NCBI GenBank assembly: GCA_045643885.1
Contig: JAZRFY010000027.1
Location: 8,230 to 72,229 of the forward strand
Direction of reading: 5' to 3'
Length of the DNA: 64,000 bases
From: Eubacteriales bacterium
Lineage (GTDB): Bacteria; Bacillota; Clostridia; Oscillospirales; CAG-272
Position 1 is the first letter of the stretch, and every line of letters starts with the position of its first letter. A program made the position numbers and the translations under genes. Shown here one piece after another: positions 3,965 through 28,044 of the stretch. The notes below the pieces were generated by a model that was given only the letters and a program-made list of their open reading frames with translations, was not told where the DNA came from and made no database searches.

Positions 3965-5185
3965 ATGCAATTCGATTTCGATAAAATAATTGAAAAATTC
4001 AAATACGATCCCAATTCCGTAAAAAAGGATTATGACGGAAGGACGGACGTATATCTTGCAAAGGTCAGCTACCGTTATGCATACGTCAAACGAATCATTT
4101 CGGTGCTTATAATCCTTGTGCTTATTGCCTTTGTTTTGTCGGGCAATATCGCGTATAGCAAGTTTTATTATCTTGCCAAGGATATAAGACTTGCATCGGA
4201 TTTCGTGAATTCAAGTCACGATACGATAACCTATAACGTGGGCAATTCACAAAGCTTTGTTGCATTCAGATCGGGAATTGCCGTTGCAAGTAGAGAAAGG
4301 CTTTCCATCTTCTCAGCCGGTGGCAAGGAGCTGTTTTCTGCAAACCACAGCTTTGGAAATCCCTCACTCAAGGCAAACGATAAATACGTTTTGCTCTATG
4401 ACGTGGGTGGCAAGCAATATGCGCTTTATAACTCATTTTCAAAGACCAATGAGGGAACACTCAATAACGTAATATACGGGGCAAGCGTTTCCGAAAGCGG
4501 TACATTTGCCTTGATAACAAAAACCGATAAATACGATTCAGTTGTCAGCGTTTATCAGCAAAATGGTACGAAATATGATTATAATTTTGCTAATGGAAGA
4601 GTGTATTCCGTTTCGCTCTCCGAAAACGGATTGCAATTTGCCGTGCTCCTCGTTTTTTCAGATGGAGCTGATATAAGGACTGAAATAAGAGTCTATAAGC
4701 TCGGAAGCAATGACTATTCCGCAAAGGATCTTACCTTCAAGGGCATTCCTTATGAGGTGAAAATATTGAATAACGGCAACATTTTAGCCGTTGGAGCAAA
4801 GGGAGTCAATGCCTTCTCCTCAAGCCTTTCCTTGCTTGGAGAATATTTGACCGACAAGGAAATATACGCCTATGCTTTTGGGGATGATAATATTGCAATA
4901 AGTCACGTTTCCGATAATGAGGGCAAGACTGATGTTGTTATCCTTAACCAACGAGGCAAGATTGAAAAGAGATTTTTACATAGTGACAGAGTTATAGACG
5001 TTGCCGTTTATAAGGACTATCTCTTCGTGCAAAAGATAAGTGGCTTTGAAAGAACCAATATCGCACTTGGCACTACTGAAAAGATCGAGCTTATCGGAAC
5101 TGATTTCAAAATGATAGCCAGTGACAAGGATACGCTTATAATTTGCAACGATTCCTATGCAAACTTTTTGAATTTTGGAAGATAA
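3965..5185 (+). CDS. hypothetical single-pass membrane protein with a beta-rich ectodomain
   Basis: Long ORF whose ATG follows GGAG. N-terminal TM segment IISVLIILVLIAFVLSGNIAY. No catalytic motif recognised. Confidence 0.6.
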   Translation: MQFDFDKIIEKFKYDPNSVKKDYDGRTDVYLAKVSYRYAYVKRIISVLIILVLIAFVLSGNIAYSKFYYLAKDIRLASDFVNSSHDTITYNVGNSQSFVAFRSGIAVASRERLSIFSAGGKELFSANHSFGNPSLKANDKYVLLYDVGGKQYALYNSFSKTNEGTLNNVIYGASVSESGTFALITKTDKYDSVVSVYQQNGTKYDYNFANGRVYSVSLSENGLQFAVLLVFSDGADIRTEIRVYKLGSNDYSAKDLTFKGIPYEVKILNNGNILAVGAKGVNAFSSSLSLLGEYLTDKEIYAYAFGDDNIAISHVSDNEGKTDVVILNQRGKIEKRFLHSDRVIDVAVYKDYLFVQKISGFERTNIALGTTEKIELIGTDFKMIASDKDTLIICNDSYANFLNFGR

Positions 5186-5210
5186 AGCATTTTGAAAAAG
5201 GAGATTTTAT

Positions 5211-5897
5211 ATGTATAATTGGGATATAATAATTGATGTTCTTATAGTTGTGTTGATAATCTTCACAATAATAACAAATGCGAAAAAAGGATTTATAAAG
5301 ACTGCGTTAAATGCAATTAAGGGCATACTTGTTTTGCTTTTGGCACTTGCCTTGACACCCATGACCTCCGACATTGCAAAGGACAATTTTGTTAATGGTT
5401 GGTTTGAGGGAACGATAACCACTCCCTTTGTTGAAACTGCACTTGAGGCAGGGGAAAATTTCAATTTTGAAACTATTTCCGAAAACCTTCCCGACGTGGC
5501 AGATGGAGTTATCTCCTTGATCGACGTTGACGGAGCGCTCAGTCAATTTGAGGGTACGGGCGTTGATTTTGCCATGGAATTCGGCGGCAGATTAGAGGGA
5601 CTTGTGATAAACGTGGTTTCCAATATCATAACGTACGTTTTCTGGTGGATAATACTTTCTATCGTGCTTACGATCATAGTTAAGTTGCTTGAAAAAACAG
5701 TTGAATTGCCCGTTCTCAAGCAGGGCGACCATATACTCGGAGGCATTTGGGGCGTAGTTAGTGCCTATGTTGAAATCAGCCTTTGCGTAGTAGTGTTAGC
5801 ATTTTTCGGAGGATTCGAATTCATTGAAAATACCGTGGTTGCAAGATTCTTCTATGAAAACGGATTGTTCTCAACCTTGTTTAATACTATCCTTTAA
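5211..5897 (+). CDS. CvpA-family (colicin V production-like) membrane protein
   Basis: AGGAG ribosome-binding site. N-terminal WDIIIDVLIVVLIIFTIITNAKKGFIK helix pattern and C-terminal TM helices typical of CvpA-like proteins. Confidence 0.65.
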   Translation: MYNWDIIIDVLIVVLIIFTIITNAKKGFIKTALNAIKGILVLLLALALTPMTSDIAKDNFVNGWFEGTITTPFVETALEAGENFNFETISENLPDVADGVISLIDVDGALSQFEGTGVDFAMEFGGRLEGLVINVVSNIITYVFWWIILSIVLTIIVKLLEKTVELPVLKQGDHILGGIWGVVSAYVEISLCVVVLAFFGGFEFIENTVVARFFYENGLFSTLFNTIL

Positions 5898-5907
5898 GGA
5901 GTAAAAT

Positions 5908-8211
5908 ATGATAATGTGTTCAAGATGCCATAAGAGAATGGCAGTTGTTTTCATCACCAAGCTTGAAAACGGTGAGAAGAAGAACGAGGGCGTTTGCATG
6001 ACGTGTGCAAAGGAGCTTGGACTTCCTCTTGACAACATGCTTGGCGACGTAATAAATAAATTCGGAATCACACCCGAGGAGCTTTCGGGTATGGAGGACG
6101 AAATGACAAGAATGATGGAAAACGGGGGAGAGCTTCCTGCAATGATGGATGAAGAAGGCTCTGACGACGAGGCAAGAGCACCCGCTATCGATCTTCAAAA
6201 GCTTTTTGGCGGCAATAGCTCAAACGCGCCAAACGTTGAGGGGGGCAAGGCAAATGCCGACGAAAAAAATAAAGAGAAAAAGAGAAAATTCCTTGATGCA
6301 TATTGTAAGGACCTTACAAGAGATGCAAGGGAGGGCAAGCTCGATGCCATCGTTGGCAGAGAAAAGGAGCTTGCAAGAGTAATACAAATTCTTTCAAGAA
6401 GACAAAAAAATAACCCCTGCCTTATAGGTGAGCCCGGTGTCGGTAAGACAGCCATCGCCGAGGCATTGGCACAAAAGATTGTCAGAGGGGACGTCCCCTA
6501 TAAGCTCAAAAATAAAGAGCTCCACCTTCTCGACCTCACTGCACTTGTTGCAGGCACACAGTTCAGAGGTCAGTACGAAAGCCGACTTTTGGGCCTTTTG
6601 AAGGAGGTAAAGGACGCAGGCAATATCATCCTCGTTATCGATGAGGTGCATAACATCGTTGGTGCAGGTAACAGTGAGGGAAGCATGAGCACTGCAAACA
6701 TGCTCAAGCCAGCCCTTTCTCGCGGTGAAATACAGGTTATCGGTGCAACAACACTCAGTGAATACAGAAAGTATATTGAAAAGGATTCCGCCCTTGAAAG
6801 ACGCTTCCAACCCGTTAAGGTTGAAGAGCCTTCAATCGATGAAACTCTTGAGATGCTCAAGGGGATCAAGCATTATTACGAATCCTTCCACCAGATAAAG
6901 ATACCTGAATCCGTTTTGAGAAGCGCAGTTGTGCTTTCCGAAAGATATATCACGGACAGATATCTTCCCGATAAAGCTATCGACCTTCTTGACGAGGCAG
7001 CTGCAACTCTTTCTTTAAGCTCAGCTTCTCTTAACAGAAGCATAGAGATAAGAGAAAACCTTCTTTCTATTAAGAAGGATAGAGAAGCGCTCGAGGCAAT
7101 GCCTCTCGATTCTCCCGACAATGCGGATGCTTATGAAAAGATCGCAAAGCTTAAATCCAAGGAGATCAAGCTTGCAGAGGAGCTTAAATCCCTTGAGGGT
7201 GAGTGCGAAAACATCATCCTTGATACTGAATGTCTTGCCGACGTTGTAGAGATGTGGACGGGTGTTCCTGCACTTACTGTAAGTGCAAATGAATACGAGC
7301 AGATCGATAAGCTTGAGGAAAGACTTAAAACTCATATCATCGGTCAGGATAAGGCAGTAAAATCCATTTGCCGTGCTATAAAGAGAAATAGAGCAGGCAT
7401 TTCATATAAGAGAAAGCCCGTCTCCTTTATCTTTGCAGGACCTACGGGTGTTGGTAAGACCGAGCTTGTTAAACAGCTTGCAAACGATCTTTTCCATTCT
7501 CCCGAAACGCTCATTCGCCTTGATATGAGTGAGTTTATGGAAAAGCACTCCGTTTCAAAGATTATCGGAGCGCCTCCCGGATACGTTGGATACGACGAGG
7601 CAGGTCAGCTTACTGAAAAGATAAGAAGAAGACCTTATTCCGTAATCCTTTTTGACGAGATTGAAAAGGCACATCCCGACGTGCTTAACGTTCTTTTGCA
7701 GATTCTTGACGACGGTCGCGTGACCGACGCGCAGGGAAGAACTATAAACTTTGAAAATACCATTTTGGTAATGACCACAAATGCAGGCTCAACCAATTCT
7801 TCCGGCAGAGCAGGATTTTCAATGTCCGATAATCTTTCAGCCGAGGACGCGCGCACTATGAAGGCGCTTGAGGGCTTCCTCCGTCCTGAATTTATCAACC
7901 GTGTTGACGAGATTATCACCTTCAATTCTCTTACTGAAGAGAACTTTGAAAGGATTGCAGAAATTATGCTTACCGAGCTTAAGATTGCACTCAATGAAAA
8001 GGGAATCGACCTTTCCTACAGTGAGGATGCACTTAAATTCGTTGGCAAGAAATCATACTCTGCAAAATTCGGTGCAAGAAATATGAGAAGATTTATTCAG
8101 ACTCATATCGAGGATGCTATTGCCGAAAAGGTGATCGCTGATTATAATCGCACAATTTCAAAGGTTTATATTTCAGTCGATAATGACGAGATAATTGTGA
8201 CCTGTATGTAA
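5908..8211 (+). CDS. clpE: ClpE-like Clp/Hsp100 AAA+ ATPase (two NBDs, N-terminal CxxC...CxxC zinc ribbon)
   Basis: N-terminus [10 protein letters not shown]...[12 protein letters not shown]1 has [12 protein letters not shown] and NBD2 has [11 protein letters not shown] ClpP-docking-type loop ([10 protein letters not shown]) is present. There is no Clp_N repeat domain. Confidence 0.8.
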
Positions 8212-23116: not shown

Positions 23117-24610
23117 ATGAACCAAAGCTTCGATAATCAAAGATATATTGAATTACAATCAAAGCACATCAACGATAGGATCGAACAGTTTGGAGGCAAG
23201 CTCTATCTTGAGTTTGGCGGCAAGCTTTTTGACGATTATCACGCATCCCGAGTGCTTCCCGGCTTTATGCCCGACTCCAAGCTCCATATGCTTTTGGCGC
23301 TTAAGGATAAGGCAGAGATTGTCATCGTTGTAAATACCGACGATATCGAGAAAAACAAAATAAGAGGTGACCTTGGAATCACCTATGACCTTGACGTGCT
23401 TCGTCTTATAGACGCGTTCAAAAACGTTGGACTCTATGTTGGAAGCGTTGTGCTTACCCGATTCGAGTCCGTGCACCCTGCAGTTGCCAAATTCGAGCGT
23501 AAGCTTGAAAAATTAGGCATTAAGGTGTACCACCACTATACGATCCCCGGCTATCCCTCCAACGTAGCAAAGATTGTCAGTGATGACGGCTTTGGCAAAA
23601 ACGAATATGTTGAAACTCAAAGAGAGCTTGTTATCGTAACAGGTCCCGGTCCCGGTAGCGGTAAGATGGCTGTGTGCCTCTCCCAGCTCTATAACGATAA
23701 TAAGCAGGGAATTAAGGCAGGATATGCAAAGTTTGAAACCTTCCCCATATGGAATAAGCCCCTCCGTCACCCTGTAAACCTCGCTTATGAGGCTGCAACG
23801 GCTGACCTTAACGACGTAAATATGATTGACCCCTATCACCTTGAAAAATATGGTGAAATGGCAGTAAACTATAATAGAGACGTTGAAATTTTCCCCGTCC
23901 TCGATGCGATATTCAAGGGGATCTACGGTGATAAATCCCCCTATTTCTCACCCACTGATATGGGTGTAAATATGGTCGGAAATTGTATCATCGACGATGA
24001 GGAGGTAATAGACGCGTCAAAGAGAGAGATCGTTCGTAGATATTATGACGCACTTTGTGCCTATAGGGATGATGATACCGAGAGAAATAAGAATTCCGTT
24101 CAAAAGATAGAGCTTCTTATGCAGCAGGCAGGCATCACAAAGAATTATCGTAAGGTAATTGCTGCGGCAAAGGCAAAGAGTGAAGAAACCGGTGTTCCCA
24201 CGGCGGCAATCGAGCTTGCTGACGGACGAATCATCACGGGTAAAGCAACCGACCTTCTTGAAAGCGTTTCTGCAATGCTCCTCAATGCATTGAAGGAGAT
24301 AACAGGCATTCCCGACGAGATACACCTTCTCGCACCCGAGGTAATCGAGCCCGTTCAAAAGCTCAAATGTCAGTATCTTTCAAGAACCTATAAGAAGTTG
24401 AACGTAAATGAGATTCTCATCGCACTTTCAATTTCAGCACATACCTCTGCAACGGCGGCGCACGTGCTTAAGCACCTTCCCAAGCTTGCAGGATGCGATA
24501 TCCACTCAACCGTAATGCTCCCAAGTGCCGACGTCGAGGTCCTCAAAAAGCTCGGACTCAACGTCACCTGCGAGCCCAAATATCAAATCAAAGAAATCTT
24601 CATTGGATGA
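23117..24610 (+). CDS. UPF0371/DUF1846-family protein
   Basis: N-terminus FDNQRYIELQSKHINDRIEQFGGKLYLEFGGKLFDDYHASRVLPGF matches my memory of this conserved Firmicute family. Confidence 0.8.
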   Translation: MNQSFDNQRYIELQSKHINDRIEQFGGKLYLEFGGKLFDDYHASRVLPGFMPDSKLHMLLALKDKAEIVIVVNTDDIEKNKIRGDLGITYDLDVLRLIDAFKNVGLYVGSVVLTRFESVHPAVAKFERKLEKLGIKVYHHYTIPGYPSNVAKIVSDDGFGKNEYVETQRELVIVTGPGPGSGKMAVCLSQLYNDNKQGIKAGYAKFETFPIWNKPLRHPVNLAYEAATADLNDVNMIDPYHLEKYGEMAVNYNRDVEIFPVLDAIFKGIYGDKSPYFSPTDMGVNMVGNCIIDDEEVIDASKREIVRRYYDALCAYRDDDTERNKNSVQKIELLMQQAGITKNYRKVIAAAKAKSEETGVPTAAIELADGRIITGKATDLLESVSAMLLNALKEITGIPDEIHLLAPEVIEPVQKLKCQYLSRTYKKLNVNEILIALSISAHTSATAAHVLKHLPKLAGCDIHSTVMLPSADVEVLKKLGLNVTCEPKYQIKEIFIG

Positions 24611-24620
24611 TATAATAAAA

Positions 24621-24650
24621 GCACTTGCAAATGCAAGTGCTTTTGTTGTT
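24621..24650 (+). terminator. terminator of the DUF1846 gene
   Basis: Inverted repeat gcacttgca/tgcaagtgc followed by TTTTGTTGTT. Confidence 0.65.
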
Positions 24651-24672
24651 TTACTTGTTTTTTCTCGTGAAA

Positions 24673-24713
24673 TCTTCGGTCACCGTTCAAAAACAACACA
24701 CTGTGTTGTTTTT
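24673..24713. repeat. left copy of a 41-nt direct repeat (16-nt box plus terminator-like hairpin)
   Basis: tcttcggtcaccgttc + aaaaacaacaca-c-tgtgttgttttt. It matches 38/41 nt of 27530-27570. On the minus strand it is placed to terminate the islet operon. Confidence 0.8.
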
Positions 24714-24810
24714 ATCCTTGCTTTCCTAGCCCAAAACGAGTAGGCATCTCTCCAAAAAAGCGATTTCCGAGGAGCTGGTCGAGACAAGCTCGGCAGACTT
24801 CGGAAGCATC

Positions 24811-24898
24811 TCGGAAAGTTGGTTGCGATATGGAGACAGTCCTCGAAAAGAAGTTCGGAAACTTGGTTGCGATATGGTAACAATCCTCGGAAATGTTT
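24811..24898. repeat. non-coding tandem repeat, 2 x 44 nt, with a degenerate third unit at 24767-24810
   Basis: Unit 1 is 24811-24854 and unit 2 is 24855-24898. They share TCGGAAA-n-TTGGTTGCGATATGG-nn-ACA-n-TCCTCGrAAA. No plausible ORF covers them. Confidence 0.8.
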
Positions 24899-24923
24899 AG
24901 GATATGTTAACTATTGTTCATTA

Positions 24924-25487
24924 TCAAATGTATTCGATAGGCAAATGACCATAAATAATCTTATATTCTGCGGATTTATAGTATTCTTTTACTTTTTCTT
25001 GATTTTGAGAAATGTAATCATTTGCTCCTGCTATTAAAGCATCTATTAATCCAATTACATTTATGGAAACACTAGTATCACCAACAAAATTTTCTGCCAC
25101 ATTGCATAAATAGGAGTCGCCACAATGAGCAGAACAGTCTGACACACATAAAGAAAATGTATCTATAATACCATTTTTGTTATTACTATTCGATTTCAAA
25201 TCGTTATTTCCAGCATGCAATACAGAACATCTTAAAGCATAGCAATTATTCCCGTCGAATTTGCTATTTTCCATCCCTTTGTTTATTAGTTCATTTTGAG
25301 ATTTAGAAAATTCATAATATGGATATATCCATTTGTTAAACCATTCAACATACTCTTCGCGATGGGTTTTTCTATTATGTTCTATATTACTTAAAATATT
25401 AGGGAGTGTTAACGCCAATGCTAAAGCTGACACATATGCTTTGCTGTTTTTTGCAACTGTGATATCATTGATTATATCTTCTACCAT
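24924..25487 (-). CDS. hypothetical 187-aa protein with an Rx4H motif (possible HEPN-like RNase)
   Basis: AT-rich ORF 7 nt downstream of the zinc-ribbon nuclease gene. Motif YALRCSVLHAGN (R86-x4-H91). Composition suggests a predominantly helical protein. Confidence 0.65.
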   Translation of the reverse strand: MVEDIINDITVAKNSKAYVSALALALTLPNILSNIEHNRKTHREEYVEWFNKWIYPYYEFSKSQNELINKGMENSKFDGNNCYALRCSVLHAGNNDLKSNSNNKNGIIDTFSLCVSDCSAHCGDSYLCNVAENFVGDTSVSINVIGLIDALIAGANDYISQNQEKVKEYYKSAEYKIIYGHLPIEYI

Positions 25488-25494
25488 AGACTAG

Positions 25495-26739
25495 TTATAC
25501 CTTTGCTTTTTTCTTGTTTTTGGCACATATGGGACATCCAGTTCCATTATTTCTATGACTTATGGTTGCCTGCCATTCATGTTTGTTACTACATATCCAC
25601 CATACTTTTTGGCTGCTATTAGGCATAACTTCAGTTGGTAATAATTCATTGTTTTTTTCATAATTCCATTCGTTAGCTAAAATTGGATTAACTGTTTGTA
25701 AATCGTTTTCACCTTTAACTGCATATCTGCCTGAACAATATGGACATCCTCTTCCTTTATTTCGGTTTTTAATCATCGCTTGCCATTCATGTCCTTTATT
25801 ACATTTCCACCAAACCTTTTTGTGACTATTAGGAGTTACATCTTCTGGCATTAAATTTCCGTTCTTTTCATAATTCCATTCATTGGCTAATAGAGGATGA
25901 ATTGTATTTAATTCGTTGTAACCTTTTAATATTTTTTTGTTTGAGCAAATTGGACATCCATAACCATTATTTCTATTAGCGATAGCTGCTTGCCATTCAT
26001 GTCCTTTATTACATTTCCACCAAACTTTTTTATGACTATTAGGAGTTACATCTTCTGGCATTAAATTTCCGTTCTTTTCATAATTCCACTCATTGGCTAA
26101 AGTAGGATTAATTGTATGTAAATCATTATAACCTCTCAATATTTGTTTGCTTGAGCAAATTGGACATCCGCGCCCATTATTTCTATTGTATATTGTTGCT
26201 TTCCACTCGTGACCTTTGTTACACTTCCACCAAGCATTATATCCACTATTGGCGGTAAAGTGATATGGTTTGGATTCTCCGTTTTTTTCATAATTCCATT
26301 CGTTAGCTAAAATTGGATTAATCGTTTGTAAGTCATTATAACCTTTTAATACATTTTTACCTATACAATAAGGACATCCAACCCCACTATTTCGACTGCC
26401 TATTGTAGCTTGCCATTCATGTCCATTACTACATTGCCACCAAACTTTTTGTTTACTATTCGCAGTAAAATTTTCAGGTTTTAAAGTTTGATTTTTTATA
26501 TAATTCCATTCATTTGCCAAAAATGGATTCGTAGTTTGCAAATCATTATAGCCTTTTAATACTTTTTTGTTTGAACAGTATGGACAGCCGTATCCCTTAT
26601 TTCTATTATCTACTGTGGATTGCCACTCGTGACCTTTGCTACATATCCACCATACTCTTTTTCCACTATTAGCTGTTAAATGTTCTGGGATTAAACGACC
26701 GTTTTTTTCGTAATTCCATTCTTTTGCAATTTCAGGATT
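25495..26739 (-). repeat. six tandem 210-nt (70-aa) coding repeats inside the zinc-ribbon gene
   Basis: The WNY motif recurs at residues 221/291/361/431/501/571 of the ORF-track protein. Blocks 25778-25890 and 25988-26100 differ at only 3 positions. Confidence 0.9.
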
Positions 26740-27369
26740 TACAATATACAAAGACCTATCCTTTTCAATGTAATCTCTCAAATTTTCGATTTCTATGGAA
26801 TCTCTTTCAAGATCAATGTCAACATTTTCTCCGATTATTTCTTTTAAAATCATCTGAAGTATTGCCGAAAAGTTTTTTTCTACAACGTAGTCAATAGAAC
26901 TATCGTTTAGGGGGGGCAATTTTTCTCTTATTCGGTACAGTTTAATTCCATCTTTTTGACACTTTCGATTTTTTGCTAAATCCTTTTGCTGTTTATTTTT
27001 ATGCCAAAAATACCCATCATATTCAATTGCAATGTTTTTGGATGGGATATAGATATCTAATTCATAGCCTCTATCATTATATGAATGTATTACATCCAAA
27101 CCATATTTTTGTAGATAATACACAAGTGAATATTCAGGAAGAGAGGTTCTACGTTCAGAATTGCACAATGGACAACCGCTCCCTGTGTGTCGACTATTTA
27201 TTACTGCTTGCCACTCGTGTCTTTTATGACATTTCCACCAAACTTTTTTACCACTACCGCAAGTAAGTTTTGTGGGATCGAATCCAAGTTCATTATTCTT
27301 CTCCCAATCCCATTCTGCCATAAGTTGAGCATTATCGCTCACGTATTTCTTTTCTTTCTTTTCTGCCAT
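25495..27369 (-). CDS. multi-zinc-ribbon (DUF4379-like treble-clef repeats x7) protein with an embedded Vsr/DUF559-like PD-(D/E)xK endonuclease domain
   Basis: Seven repeats of the pattern L(A)xEW(N/D)YEKN...P...NS..KVWW(K/I/Q)C..GHEWQA.I..RN.G.GCP(Y/I/L)C. The nuclease core is YELDIYIPSKNIAIEYDGYFWH...KLYRIRE (26923-27147). Start taken at ATG 27369; an in-frame GTG at 27378 is an alternative. Confidence 0.85.
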   Translation of the reverse strand: MAEKKEKKYVSDNAQLMAEWDWEKNNELGFDPTKLTCGSGKKVWWKCHKRHEWQAVINSRHTGSGCPLCNSERRTSLPEYSLVYYLQKYGLDVIHSYNDRGYELDIYIPSKNIAIEYDGYFWHKNKQQKDLAKNRKCQKDGIKLYRIREKLPPLNDSSIDYVVEKNFSAILQMILKEIIGENVDIDLERDSIEIENLRDYIEKDRSLYIVNPEIAKEWNYEKNGRLIPEHLTANSGKRVWWICSKGHEWQSTVDNRNKGYGCPYCSNKKVLKGYNDLQTTNPFLANEWNYIKNQTLKPENFTANSKQKVWWQCSNGHEWQATIGSRNSGVGCPYCIGKNVLKGYNDLQTINPILANEWNYEKNGESKPYHFTANSGYNAWWKCNKGHEWKATIYNRNNGRGCPICSSKQILRGYNDLHTINPTLANEWNYEKNGNLMPEDVTPNSHKKVWWKCNKGHEWQAAIANRNNGYGCPICSNKKILKGYNELNTIHPLLANEWNYEKNGNLMPEDVTPNSHKKVWWKCNKGHEWQAMIKNRNKGRGCPYCSGRYAVKGENDLQTVNPILANEWNYEKNNELLPTEVMPNSSQKVWWICSNKHEWQATISHRNNGTGCPICAKNKKKAKV

Positions 27370-27407
27370 AATGCTCACTCACTTTCTTGAATTTTGTTTA
27401 TAGATTA

Positions 27408-27436
27408 ATTATATCACGAATTATTAGTGAATGCAA
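27408..27436 (-). promoter_or_regulatory. sigmaA-type promoter of the islet operon (TTGCAT-17-TATAAT)
   Basis: On the minus strand: ttgcat tcactaataattcgtga tataat, with TG at -14/-15 relative to the -10. It lies about 40 nt upstream of the ATG at 27369. Confidence 0.55.
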
Positions 27437-27529
27437 CGAATTTTGCAAATGTTTGGAATTTTAGGGGAATTCGCTCTTGAATTTTGTGAGGCAATGAGCA
27501 AAAGAGGTAAGGTTTATGCCTCGCAAAAT

Positions 27530-27570
27530 TCTTCGGTCACCGTTCAAAAACAGCGCACTGTGCTGTTTTT
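27530..27570. repeat. right copy of the 41-nt direct repeat; probable ssrA terminator
   Basis: tcttcggtcaccgttc + aaaaacagcgca-c-tgtgctgttttt. On the minus strand the hairpin plus T-run lies about 80 nt after the tmRNA CCA end. Confidence 0.8.
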
Positions 27571-27651
27571 TCACTGCGTTCGATTCCCCTCATTTTATGC
27601 AACGAAAAAATAACAAGGGAGCACTCTAAAGAGCACCCCCTTATTATTTTT

Positions 27652-28044
27652 TGGTGGACTCGAGGGGAATCGAACCCCTGTCCGAAAACCTCTTGATATG
27701 ACCTTCTCCGTGGGCAGTCAGTTTTTATTACTTCCCACTAAGAACCGCCAACTGACAGGCAATTCTTAGTCCGTAGCACCTTTGTGCTTGATCGGTTCAG
27801 GTGCGACCACCGATGCAAGTTCACCACTACGATCACGCTCAGTCCGCAGTCGTGGTCCTCTGCGGAGGAACGGGTAGCCCACAGGCTACAGCACCGCCAA
27901 TTGAAGCGCCCTAAGGCGCGTCAATTAGGCAGCCATTGCAACAGTATTGTTGTCGTTTAATTTAAAGTTTGAGCAGTTATCGGGATTACTCAGCCCGCCA
28001 CGCTTATCATACCTCAAAATCCCCGTCGAAACCATTACGAGCCC
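27652..28044 (-). ncRNA. ssrA: transfer-messenger RNA (tmRNA)
   Basis: The minus strand reads 5' GGGCUCGUAAUGGUUUCGACGGGG ... GGGGUUCGAUUCCCCUCGAGUCCACCA 3'. The acceptor stem has a G3:U pair. An internal tag frame ends ...ACU GUU GCA AUG GCU GCC UAA (..TVAMAA*), at 27925-27957. Confidence 0.92.

Follow-up and report, generated by a model that had tools for sequence, protein, structure and literature searches.

A zinc-module-array protein with a predicted Vsr-like nuclease core, encoded as optional cargo at the ssrA 3' flank

Gene content and variability of the ssrA 3' flank

The stretch of DNA analysed here, 64 kb long and referred to below as the window, contains on its minus strand a gene for a candidate zinc-ribbon-array endonuclease of 624 aa (25495..27369). 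According to the ORF list, it runs from an ATG at 27369 to a stop codon at 25495-25497, matching to the codon the coordinates originally predicted; a longer form of the ORF (25495..27378, minus strand, 627 aa) starts from an alternative GTG at 27378. From N to C terminus, the protein comprises one DUF4379 unit, a nuclease core of ~138 aa and six exact 70-aa DUF4379 units. It is listed as a singleton cluster (P0005), and the zinc-repeat and nuclease-core motifs were found in no other ORF of the 64-kb window. A promoter-like site (TTGCAA-17-AATAAT; 27420..27449, minus strand), recognised by consensus scan only, lies ~50 bp 5' of the ATG, and 8 bp 3' of the nuclease gene is a co-oriented gene for a 187-aa protein from a small phage-linked family (24924..25487, minus strand). 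Upstream, on the same strand, the tmRNA gene ssrA (27652..28044, minus strand; tag DNNTVAMAA) was identified with ARAGORN and by Rfam RF00023 (151 bits), its 3' end lying 283 bp from the nuclease start.

Adjoining ssrA is an ssrA-proximal unit of ~190 bp (27463..27651, plus strand), kept in 6 related genomes and tandem in two. Within it lie the right direct repeat (27522-27570) and, at 27578-27591, 14 nt of the tmRNA T-arm in inverted orientation. A partial copy of this unit, with a bidirectional terminator-like hairpin inside, forms the left direct repeat at the distal cargo edge (24664..24725, plus strand), and the cassette is bracketed in this way by 44-62 bp direct repeats of the ssrA-proximal flank. 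Since homing creates no such repeats, they point to recombinational insertion. GC content is 0.37-0.38 at the cassette against ~0.42 nearby. No integrase gene was found within 24.6-27.7 kb and no intron at 22-30 kb, where Rfam gives only the tmRNA; the gene is inside neither an intron nor an intein. A classical att duplication was considered for the 3' end of ssrA and rejected, the window holding no second copy at up to 6 mismatches of 24 nt. Another tandem repeat, two copies of 44 bp at 24804-24891, has no copies in 257 loci and an unremarkable RNA fold (z=-0.67).

In the stretches fetched from 17 related genomes, ssrA is kept in eleven; two of these have an empty site (39-56 bp) and the rest other cargo. 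The distance from the flanking gene to ssrA varies among relatives between 39 bp and 4.6 kb, and the contents are unrelated. Among the cargo encountered there are a GIY-YIG protein, a DUF2971 protein and an N6_Mtase protein next to a 357-aa ORF. The nuclease gene is absent from all 17 genomes. The free-standing insert of the window carries a second gene besides the nuclease, and alleles with the gene, empty alleles and otherwise occupied ones all exist among relatives. At this variable spot 3' of ssrA the nuclease gene counts as optional cargo, and in the source lineage the flank is recognisable as a hotspot for accessory genes. The original prediction did not mention this genomic setting.

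Genes of the same family are enriched just 3' of tRNA/tmRNA genes (6/64, P ~7e-6, for one sample and an assumed background), and the loci adjacent to such genes involve five different tRNA types and tmRNA. At one of them, L216, a repeat of 83 bp that starts in the 3' end of tRNA-Ala encloses the nuclease gene and nothing else. Among the other tRNA-linked loci no flanking direct repeats were seen, and they are therefore not a general signature.

Zinc-module array and nuclease core

The N-terminal zinc module (aa 15-70; 27160..27327, minus strand), located by Pfam, motif regex and unit alignment, has C47, H51, C66 and C69 as its ligands. The remaining six modules follow the core head to tail (aa 208-624; 25498..26748, minus strand, with boundaries at 26539, 26329, 26119, 25909 and 25699) at an exact period of 70 aa (210 nt) by regex and translation. 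By the same means, a W-x-[WY]-x-K-N motif is found at aa 20, 218, 288, 358, 428, 498 and 568, and GCPxC at aa 65, 261, 331, 401, 471, 541 and 611. In an alignment of the seven units, 18 columns are invariant, among them four Trp and the ligands C-x3-H...C-P-x-C; the six C-terminal units share 55-84% identity as protein and 66-83% as DNA. In Pfam, PF14311 (DUF4379) covers seven stretches with E=1.1e-146 and 477.5 bits against a gathering threshold of 24.5 bits. Both the layout of one N-terminal and six head-to-tail C-terminal 70-aa units and the likeness to DUF4379, suggested earlier from the letters of the sequence, are thus borne out by regex, translation and a sevenfold Pfam match.

In relatives, the CapR model of Pfam covers the same residues as the DUF4379 model, and by analogy with the DNA-binding CapR module an array that positions its nuclease on nucleic acid is a plausible idea. 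Solved structures of DUF4379 domains are confined to trypanosomatid mitoribosomal proteins, namely the assembly factor mt-SAF33 (6sga, E=7e-7) and mS66, and since these sit in mitoribosomal RNPs, the array could conceivably also contact RNA.

The nuclease core (aa 69-206; 26752..27165, minus strand) is modelled as a beta-sheet core with a C-terminal helical extension. Its motifs ELD (aa 103-105), IEYDG (115-119), H123 and YRIRE (145-149) all lie inside 26923-27147, where they had been placed before, and its key residues are E79, E103, D105, E116, D118, G119, H123, D130 and K133. In alignment A1, the E, D, E, D, G, H and K of the core are invariant; the EDxHD equivalents E79, D105, D118, H123 and D130 are likewise invariant, or in the case of D130 conserved in at least 90%, and the core motif is present in 117 of 120 homologues.

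A core profile run against PDB has I-Bth0305I (3r3p) as its best match (E=1e-4) and aligns D105/D118/H123/D130/K133 with D196/N208/H213/D222/K225 of that enzyme, E79 being equated with E170 by helix position only, as it falls outside the HMMER-aligned range. A profile was required for this result: a single-sequence PDB search with the core gave only a chance match, ScpA (E=0.44). The AF2 model of the core has a pLDDT of 90.4, and Foldseek matches it to 3r3p with probability 1.00 and TMt 0.64-0.68, followed as second-best by the Vsr structures 1vsr/1cw0, also with probability 1.00, at modest E-values (1.5e-3). Compared with PHROG, the core alone matches phrog_3339, 'homing endonuclease', with E=9.8e-16. 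Per-member Pfam matches all fall in REase-fold families, namely MTES_1575 (21/24), DUF2726 (13), DUF559 (12), PvuRts1I_N (8) and Vsr (6), and every one of these nuclease-family matches falls under its gathering score. For MTES_1575 the threshold is 38.2 bits and the scores are 25.4-29.2; for DUF2726 the threshold is 24.7 and the scores are 13.9-17.1; the NCBIfam Vsr model, with a cut-off of 97.85, gives 16.5. Such sub-threshold scores for MTES_1575, DUF559, Vsr and DUF2726 indicate kinship at the level of fold or clan and not membership of any one model.

Judged by profile searches and the structural model, the core is a Vsr-like PD-(D/E)xK domain. PDB profile, Foldseek, Pfam and PHROG agree with the original prediction in assigning 26923-27147 to the Vsr/DUF559-type restriction-endonuclease-like fold, and structure prediction, which it proposed as a check, leads to the same place. 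The two weak points that it named for itself, a segment lying outside this fold and catalytic residues lacking conservation, were not encountered. Of the two Pfam families it expected, DUF4379 is confirmed, and DUF559, matched in 12 members below the gathering score, is related at the level of fold or clan.

The second rank of Vsr among the structural matches might suggest a Vsr-like mismatch-repair nickase serving the host, and CapR provides a precedent for a related zinc module in a domesticated, non-cleaving DNA-binding regulator (PMC8096241). We consider either form of domestication extremely doubtful. The catalytic residues are intact and invariant, which makes a loss of cleavage unlikely; the absence of the gene from all 17 close relatives argues that it is not a housekeeping gene; and the NCBIfam Vsr score stays far under its cut-off. 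An RNA-directed protein, whose zinc modules would bind structured RNA while the Vsr-like domain would act in the manner of RAP/FASTK, possibly on tRNA or tmRNA, is a very unlikely reading as well. The mitoribosomal origin of the solved DUF4379 domains and the position of family genes just 3' of tRNA/tmRNA genes speak for it, as do T. gondii mitoribosomal proteins, which Foldseek returns among the core matches with probability up to 0.99. However, the nearest relatives in sequence and fold, I-Bth0305I and Vsr, are DNA enzymes, the full set of DNA-cleavage residues is conserved, and CapR binds DNA (PMC8096241); five tRNA types plus tmRNA are more readily explained by an insertion hotspot than by a link to the substrate. 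DNA would seem the probable substrate.

Family distribution, neighbours and possible roles

The core family counts 26,658 representative clusters. By approximate, regex-based unit counts, close homologues have ~6-13 zinc units, the position of the core shifts within the array from an N:C split of (1,6) to one of (9,3), and zinc ribbons stand on both sides of the core in 111 of 149 diverse representatives. In relatives, the core is joined to DUF4379, DUF723/CapR or HA arrays. Matches to the core occur in 302 cultured-phage records at 631 places, with at most three places per genome and several annotated 'homing endonuclease', and relatives are encoded on at least 331 viral-contig stretches. In its architecture, tandem zinc modules with an EDxHD/Vsr-like nuclease, the present protein matches the viral relatives L094, L105 and L117. 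Within this very large and mostly phage-linked family, the present nuclease is genuine but unexceptional. To our knowledge, none of the DUF4379-array members of this huge family has been characterised biochemically; for a 'hypothetical protein' common in gut Clostridia, the gain is an annotation as a predicted DUF4379-array EDxHD/Vsr-type (homing-type) endonuclease with a defined active site.

Tandem CapR/DUF4379/DUF723 modules of ~60 aa with an EDxHD/Vsr nuclease were described in 2025 as a large homing-endonuclease outgroup, phage intron-encoded members being presented as HEGs (PMC12350094), and both the domain pairing and the architecture are already in the literature (PMC12350094, PMC5513546). 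The suggestion that seven copies in one nuclease are unusual was therefore mistaken, as homologues carry ~6-13 units and the embedded layout is that of the majority.

In the 187-aa neighbour, R86-x4-H91 is invariant across 17 homologues. The protein matches phrog_18591 and has significant matches only to uncharacterised phage proteins (including those in BFVD); exact-sequence look-up found neither it nor the window's 497-aa protein on record. A HEPN fold, in which an R-x4-6-H motif would be expected, was considered for it; the Foldseek PDB matches to AbiV, Csx1 and AF_0298 are all non-significant (E 0.47-4). Elsewhere, its family is found directly 3' of effector-like genes for an Mrr_cat nuclease and a trypsin-like protease. 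Some homologues of the nuclease adjoin defence-type genes, either for an AAA_15/21 ATPase (the AAA_15/AAA_21 gene starts 18 bp after P0117) or for a SLFN-like helicase and a kinase.

Such neighbourhoods raise the question of whether the protein serves defence or exclusion and not homing, as island cargo that would cut invading phage or plasmid DNA at array-read sequences, possibly together with the 187-aa protein. In keeping with this are the effector-like genes that the 187-aa family follows, its invariant R-x4-H and weak fold matches to the HEPN protein AbiV, the ATPase gene beside P0117, the N6_Mtase protein with its adjacent ORF, GIY-YIG and DUF2971 proteins at the ssrA hotspot of relatives, and the retention of catalytic residues in 117/120 homologues, unlike in decaying HEGs. 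We treat it as a possible but less probable explanation, since PADLOC-DB v2 yields only DruE3 (E=3e-6), a spurious match on the zinc repeats, with nothing for the 187-aa protein, the cassette has no methylase or self-protection gene, and the HEPN assignment is non-significant (Foldseek E >= 0.47). Clustering of 125 flanking ORFs from 80 loci gave 108 singletons and no recurrent partner gene. The two genes also fail to pair elsewhere: the neighbour of the best nuclease homologue, P0042, is unrelated, and no nuclease is encoded beside the closest homologue of the 187-aa protein, so a conserved two-gene system was rejected.

The interpretation we lean towards, with modest confidence and on the strength of sequence comparison and modelling, is that this free-standing gene, of a selfish or conflict type, codes for a site-specific DNA endonuclease from the EDxHD/Vsr-like homing-endonuclease lineage. 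Its catalytic domain (aa ~69-206) would bind metal and act through E79, D105, D118, H123 and D130, with E103, E116 and K133 also invariant. The one N-terminal and six C-terminal DUF4379 treble-clef modules may form a modular DNA-recognition array, comparable to the NUMOD/CapR modules of phage homing endonucleases, which would confer specificity and keep the nuclease on a long target. Cleavage would probably be dimeric, as for I-Bth0305I, and double-stranded. As accessory cargo of a hypervariable hotspot for insertions 3' of ssrA, the gene behaves as self-sufficient, without an obligate partner, and its role would be homing or exclusion. Counted against this interpretation are the absence of an intron or intein, the direct repeats, the second cargo gene and the defence-type neighbours of homologues, along with the sub-threshold Pfam nuclease scores, the modest Foldseek E-values and the restriction of DUF4379 structures to mitoribosomal RNPs.

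It is tempting to speculate, though we hold it unlikely, that the bacterial chromosomal members are a behavioural class apart, zinc-array endonucleases targeting tRNA/tmRNA 3' flanks and thereby making or keeping small integrase-less islets. Each 70-aa unit would read a few bp, and the number of units and the movable nuclease would set target and cut site in a TALE- or zinc-finger-like fashion. This idea draws on the 83-bp repeat of L216 and on the 44-62-bp ssrA-flank repeat of the window. If true, the association with tRNA/tmRNA flanks would bear on the origin of integrase-less islets, and arrays that read DNA modularly would be of interest to nuclease engineers.

Comparison with known systems

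The homing-lineage reading finds its closest counterpart in I-Bth0305I, the EDxHD-family homing endonuclease of Bacillus phage 0305phi8-36 (PDB 3R3P, PMC3239194), the best match in profile and fold, whose catalytic residues E170, D196, N208, H213 and D222 (PMC3239194) correspond one to one with the EDxHD set at an identity of ~20%, with D in the present protein and N in I-Bth0305I at the 'x' position. It too is multidomain, a separate region providing long-range DNA contacts over a footprint of ~60 bp (PMC3239194). I-Bth0305I, however, has a C-terminal nuclease, lacks a DUF4379 array and is encoded in a group I intron in recA, whereas the present protein has an embedded core (one unit before, six after) with an extra C-terminal helical extension and comes from a free-standing bacterial chromosomal gene. 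The very-short-patch repair endonuclease Vsr of E. coli (1VSR/1CW0) shares the fold class (Foldseek 1.00) and the catalytic Asp/His positions (residues per PMC3239194), but is a single-domain T:G mismatch nickase without a zinc-ribbon array.

The same two building blocks make up the phage group I/II-intron HEGs (PMC12350094), in which 3-5 CapR/DUF4379/DUF723-like modules accompany an EDxHD/Vsr-like domain; among the viral relatives, L094, L118 and L145 are of this type. Those HEGs are intron-encoded, with fewer modules and a C-terminal nuclease, whereas the present gene is chromosomal and intergenic and combines seven canonical DUF4379 units with an embedded nuclease; both are known in silico only. 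A Marseilleviridae 'putative restriction endonuclease' (Lausannevirus/Insectomime ISTM_159, PMC5513546), compared by description, shows the same pairing, with four DUF4379 units and an REase domain against seven units here, in a protein encoded by a eukaryotic virus.

For the array, an experimental parallel comes from the PLE satellite of Vibrio cholerae: CapR is a related zinc module based on Cys, whose sequence-specific DNA binding needs 4 Cys (EMSA; PMC8096241). It is a single 15.5-kDa module without a nuclease, derived from T5orf172 (GIY-YIG-superfamily) HEGs (PMC8096241), and its ligand pattern is CxxC...CxC compared with Cx3H...CPxC in the present array. Finally, phage T4 SegB, although a phage and not a chromosomal gene product, with a GIY-YIG fold unrelated to the present core and a known target, is a free-standing HEG located in a tRNA gene region that it also cuts (PMC2330249), and so parallels the tRNA/tmRNA adjacency seen here.

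Nuclease core and zinc-module array

The nuclease ORF, on the minus strand at 25495..27378, encodes 627 aa from a GTG codon or 624 aa from the ATG at 27369. In its translation the W-x-[WY]-x-K-N motif recurs at aa 20, 218, 288, 358, 428, 498 and 568 and GCPxC at aa 65, 261, 331, 401, 471, 541 and 611, and its DNA carries a 210-nt period in six copies plus one distant copy. A Pfam scan assigns seven stretches to PF14311 (DUF4379, "probable treble clef zinc finger"; E=1.1e-146), and ELD (aa 103-105), IEYDG (115-119), H123 and YRIRE (145-149) lie between units 1 and 2, so that tandem zinc modules stand on both sides of the core. A check of all other window ORFs found neither the repeat motif nor the core motif. 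Motif positions, periodicity, Pfam matches and the restriction of the motifs to this ORF together confirm the original prediction in its description and coordinates of repeats and core and in its naming of the repeat as DUF4379. The seven units share 18 invariant columns, among them the C-x3-H...C-P-x-C ligand set and four tryptophans, with variable positions clustering in the loops between these columns. Among the six C-terminal units, protein identity is 55-84% and DNA identity 66-83%, with units 5 and 6 closest to each other.

Searched as a single sequence, the core stayed below threshold for MTES_1575 (25.4 bits vs 38.2) and NCBIfam Vsr (16.5 vs 97.85) and gave no useful PDB match. Cores were excised from 117 homologues and 24 diverse ones were aligned; S76, E79, E103, D105, I115, E116, D118, G119, H123 and K133 are invariant, and D130, R146 and E149 are conserved in at least 90%. 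Individual members of this alignment match only restriction-endonuclease-fold families: MTES_1575 (21/24), DUF2726 (13), DUF559 (12), PvuRts1I_N (8) and Vsr (6). The alignment profile finds 3r3p as its top PDB match (E=1e-4); this structure shows the catalytic domain of the homing endonuclease I-Bth0305I as a D196A/H213A mutant (PMC3239194). A confident AlphaFold2 core model (pLDDT 90.4, pTM 0.84) likewise retrieves 3r3p first in Foldseek (TM 0.64-0.68 on the target, probability 1.00), followed by E. coli Vsr (1vsr/1cw0, probability 1.00) and, at lower rank, Bax1, PvuRts1I and a DUF559-like protein. The strongest sequence statistic is that of the core alone against phrog_3339, "homing endonuclease" (9.8e-16, PHROGs).

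The EDxHD family is defined by I-Bth0305I residues E170, D196, (N208), H213 and D222, equivalent to Vsr E25, D51, H64, H69 and D97 (PMC3239194). In the profile-PDB alignment D105, D118, H123 and D130 correspond to I-Bth0305I D196, N208, H213 and D222; E79, outside the aligned range and equated by position only, would be the upstream helix glutamate. Sequence profiles and the predicted structure thus agree on a Vsr/EDxHD-type nuclease fold with a complete, conserved putative active site. Failed fold placement and unconserved catalytic residues had been set beforehand as grounds for giving up the Vsr/DUF559-type PD-(D/E)xK assignment; both were tested, and the fold was placed and the residues proved conserved.

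The full-length search returned at least 7995 homologues at E<1e-5. The best 120, mostly from Clostridia MAGs and all unnamed or "hypothetical", span 594-1089 aa in length steps of ~70 aa; 117 of them carry the core motif, whose position shifts by ~70-aa steps from aa 103 to ~aa 680. By approximate, regex-based counts, the numbers of zinc units before and after the core run from (1,6) to (9,3), the commonest values lying near (3,5) and (4,4). The (1,6) split was found only in the window protein among the homologues counted, and seven units lie at the low end of the totals, which overturns the earlier idea that seven copies are unusual. Against 1.84 billion representative proteins, the core profile matches 26,658 clusters at E<=1e-3, 5,290 at <=1e-10 and 302 at <=1e-30. 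Ribbons flank the core on both sides in 111 of the best 149 representatives, and are N-terminal only in 21, C-terminal only in 8 and absent in 8; the embedded layout is the rule for the family.

Phage relatives and a proposed mode of action

The family is very large, rich in phage members and prone to architectural shuffling. In cultured phages the core matches 302 records at 631 places, including three per genome in PA5oct-like Pseudomonas jumbo phages, where they are annotated "homing endonuclease", and Listeria Pecentumvirus genes annotated "DUF4379 containing protein". At least 331 IMG/VR stretches encode core relatives, one 255-kb contig having three. Viral relatives place the core between four and two DUF4379 units (L094) or with DUF723/CapR/DUF4379 arrays (L145, L118), and on the viral contig L092 (3960-5828) a 623-aa protein embeds the same core in seven helicase-associated (HA, PF03457) repeats without zinc ribbons. 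These architectures indicate that the core is a module joined repeatedly to different tandem arrays. At another locus, L180, the nuclease ORF (4630-7236) is preceded at a distance of 19 bp by a 413-aa ORF, and the two form a tandem of paralogous zinc-module nucleases; the upstream paralogue has CapR/DUF4379 modules and a degenerate core in which IEPGN replaces IEYDG, suggesting decay of one copy.

CapR is a zinc module related to DUF4379, and the two Pfam models overlap on the same residues in relatives of the nuclease. Sequence-specific DNA binding is a feature of CapR, which binds a specific site in EMSA and loses binding on mutation of its four cysteines (PMC8096241). By analogy with this experiment, its one and indirect experimental support, the zinc array may be a DNA-recognition device. 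The array would bind a long DNA site to either side of the scissile bonds and position the nuclease there, and cleavage would probably be carried out by a dimer, as in I-Bth0305I, a homodimer with a ~60-bp footprint (PMC3239194). The biological role may be selfish propagation or exclusion of competing DNA. We regard this package as a whole, from EDxHD nuclease in a zinc array to selfish or exclusionary role, as somewhat probable.

Solved DUF4379 domains come solely from trypanosomatid mitoribosomal proteins (assembly factor mt-SAF33 and mS66; PDB 6sga_Fd, 7ane_at), which makes RNA contacts by the array conceivable and lends an RNA-directed function a small weight beside the DNA binding known for CapR. 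The nuclease core in turn matches T. gondii mitoribosomal proteins (9i05 chains) by fold, so both building blocks have organellar RNP relatives. A similarly small weight is given to a domesticated function.

A cargo hotspot at the ssrA flank

The tmRNA gene ssrA (27652-28044, minus strand) lies directly upstream of the nuclease gene on the same strand, 283 bp from its start codon. The 187-aa gene (24924-25487, minus strand) follows 8 bp after the nuclease gene, and a conserved 497-aa gene (23117-24610) occupies the far side of this two-gene cassette. GC content is 0.37-0.38 across the region vs ~0.42 around it. A direct repeat of 44 nt, which can be lengthened to some 50-62 nt, has exactly two copies in the window, bracketing both cassette genes: 24664-24725, a partial copy of the ssrA-proximal unit, and 27522-27570.

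Seventeen genomes were fetched through 88-92% identical orthologues of the 497-aa gene, and 11 retain ssrA within the stretch fetched. In two of these the gap between the genes is 39 bp (L014) or 56 bp (L012), with a bidirectional terminator common to both genes; it is 249-617 bp in four and 2.4-4.6 kb in five, where the cargo is unrelated (an N6_Mtase protein beside a 357-aa ORF, a GIY-YIG protein, DUF2971 and a further ORF, a 1327-aa ORF, and an ORF similar to iron-type alcohol dehydrogenase; Pfam identified the N6_Mtase, GIY-YIG and DUF2971 proteins). Homologues of the nuclease or the 187-aa gene were found in none of the 17. Homology with the relatives restarts on the ssrA side at 27463, where a ~190-bp unit (27463-27651) conserved in six relatives begins; it occurs in two to three tandem copies at L017 7544-8042 and L019 11666-12150. 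The interval 24611-27651, compared across related species (loci L012-L028), is a hypervariable hotspot for cargo: empty sites measure 39-56 bp and filled ones reach 4.6 kb. Given the variable gap, the cargo of the relatives and the boundary unit, the cassette (about 24726-27462) is accessory cargo at the ssrA 3' flank. It contains no integrase, and the ssrA 3' end occurs only once in the window.

Within the ~190-bp unit lies a hairpin resembling a bidirectional terminator, in which a compensatory change distinguishes the two copies present in the window, and L015 also carries part of the ssrA 3' end as a direct copy. The unit copies and the L015 copy resemble traces left by repeated integration or accretion. 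At 27578-27591 the tmRNA T-arm (GTTCGATTCCCCTC) recurs as a perfect inverted copy of 14 nt, 70 nt from the real arm at 27662-27675, and L015 conserves this copy as well. In the region 3' of the 187-aa gene a 44-bp sequence stands twice in tandem (24804-24891; 82% identity between the copies); no copies were found in 257 other loci, and the RNA fold is ordinary (z=-0.67).

Neighbouring genes and known counterparts

The 187-aa protein belongs to a family of 25 without Pfam or PADLOC match, in which R86, H91 and the motif LRCxxLHxGN are invariant. It matches phrog_18591 (1e-19), a phage family of unannotated function, and its significant fold matches are uncharacterised phage proteins; HEPN matches such as AbiV are non-significant, so that a HEPN-like fold is at most weakly suggested. 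In other genomes (the family's loci being L006, L008-L011 and L256) it lies directly downstream of different effector-like genes, encoding an Mrr_cat nuclease, a trypsin-like protease and an unannotated 203-aa protein, and its closest homologue sits beside a serine recombinase with no nuclease nearby. Conversely, P0042, 69% identical to the nuclease, has an unrelated downstream gene, the homologue P0083 stands alone between housekeeping operons, and an AAA_15/21 ATPase comes after P0117. Of the 125 ORFs flanking the gene in 80 metagenomic loci, 108 are singletons, and no partner family recurs; sampled neighbours are KilA-N, a protein kinase, a serine recombinase, a relaxase, an SLFN-type helicase and a degenerate paralogue. 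A conserved pair of nuclease and 187-aa gene was accordingly rejected: the nuclease gene is accessory and autonomous, and its pairing in the window is local.

At L175 (6893-8533) an AAA_15/AAA_21 ATPase gene begins 18 bp after the nuclease gene and is accompanied by an 85-aa ORF. This pair is reminiscent of defence systems and would favour a non-homing role in defence or exclusion, to which we assign most of the weight not given to the selfish or exclusionary long-site nuclease.

Six of 64 informative loci (L001, L175, L190, L191, L216, L236) have a same-strand tRNA gene upstream, its 3' end 70-539 bp from the start of the nuclease gene, and no tRNA gene lies within 600 bp downstream in 53 loci; with 60 tRNA genes per 2.5 Mb taken as the background, the upstream enrichment has P about 7e-6. 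The tRNAs (Ser in three loci, Pro, Ala, Trp) represent five types, plus tmRNA in the window, whose arrangement (27369-27652) is a seventh case. At L216 a direct repeat of 83 bp (4777-4859 and 7217-7299, 90% identical), whose first bases are the final 8 nt of tRNA-Ala, flanks an insert of 2.4 kb that holds only the DUF4379-nuclease gene and no integrase; comparable repeats were absent from the other tRNA-linked loci. The L216 repeat itself contains a degenerate tRNA-3'-end-like sequence. The enrichment fits cargo of tRNA/tmRNA-flank hotspots, an association for which no earlier report on this family was found in the literature searched.

The literature searched likewise held no biochemical characterisation of DUF4379-array members. 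The kind itself is already known from Pfam domains, from PHROG families annotated as (homing) endonucleases and from an explicit 2025 description of phage group II introns, whose intron-encoded homing endonuclease genes (HEGs) combine 3-5 domains of ~60 aa, related to CapR, DUF4379 and DUF723, with an EDxHD/Vsr-like nuclease (PMC12350094). Marseilleviruses encode a protein with four DUF4379 units and a restriction endonuclease (PMC5513546). The window protein is a chromosomal member of this kind with an uncommon (1,6) split, and the position of family genes beside tRNA and tmRNA genes recalls T4 SegB, the precedent of a free-standing HEG whose own location and cleavage site both fall in a tRNA gene region (PMC2330249).
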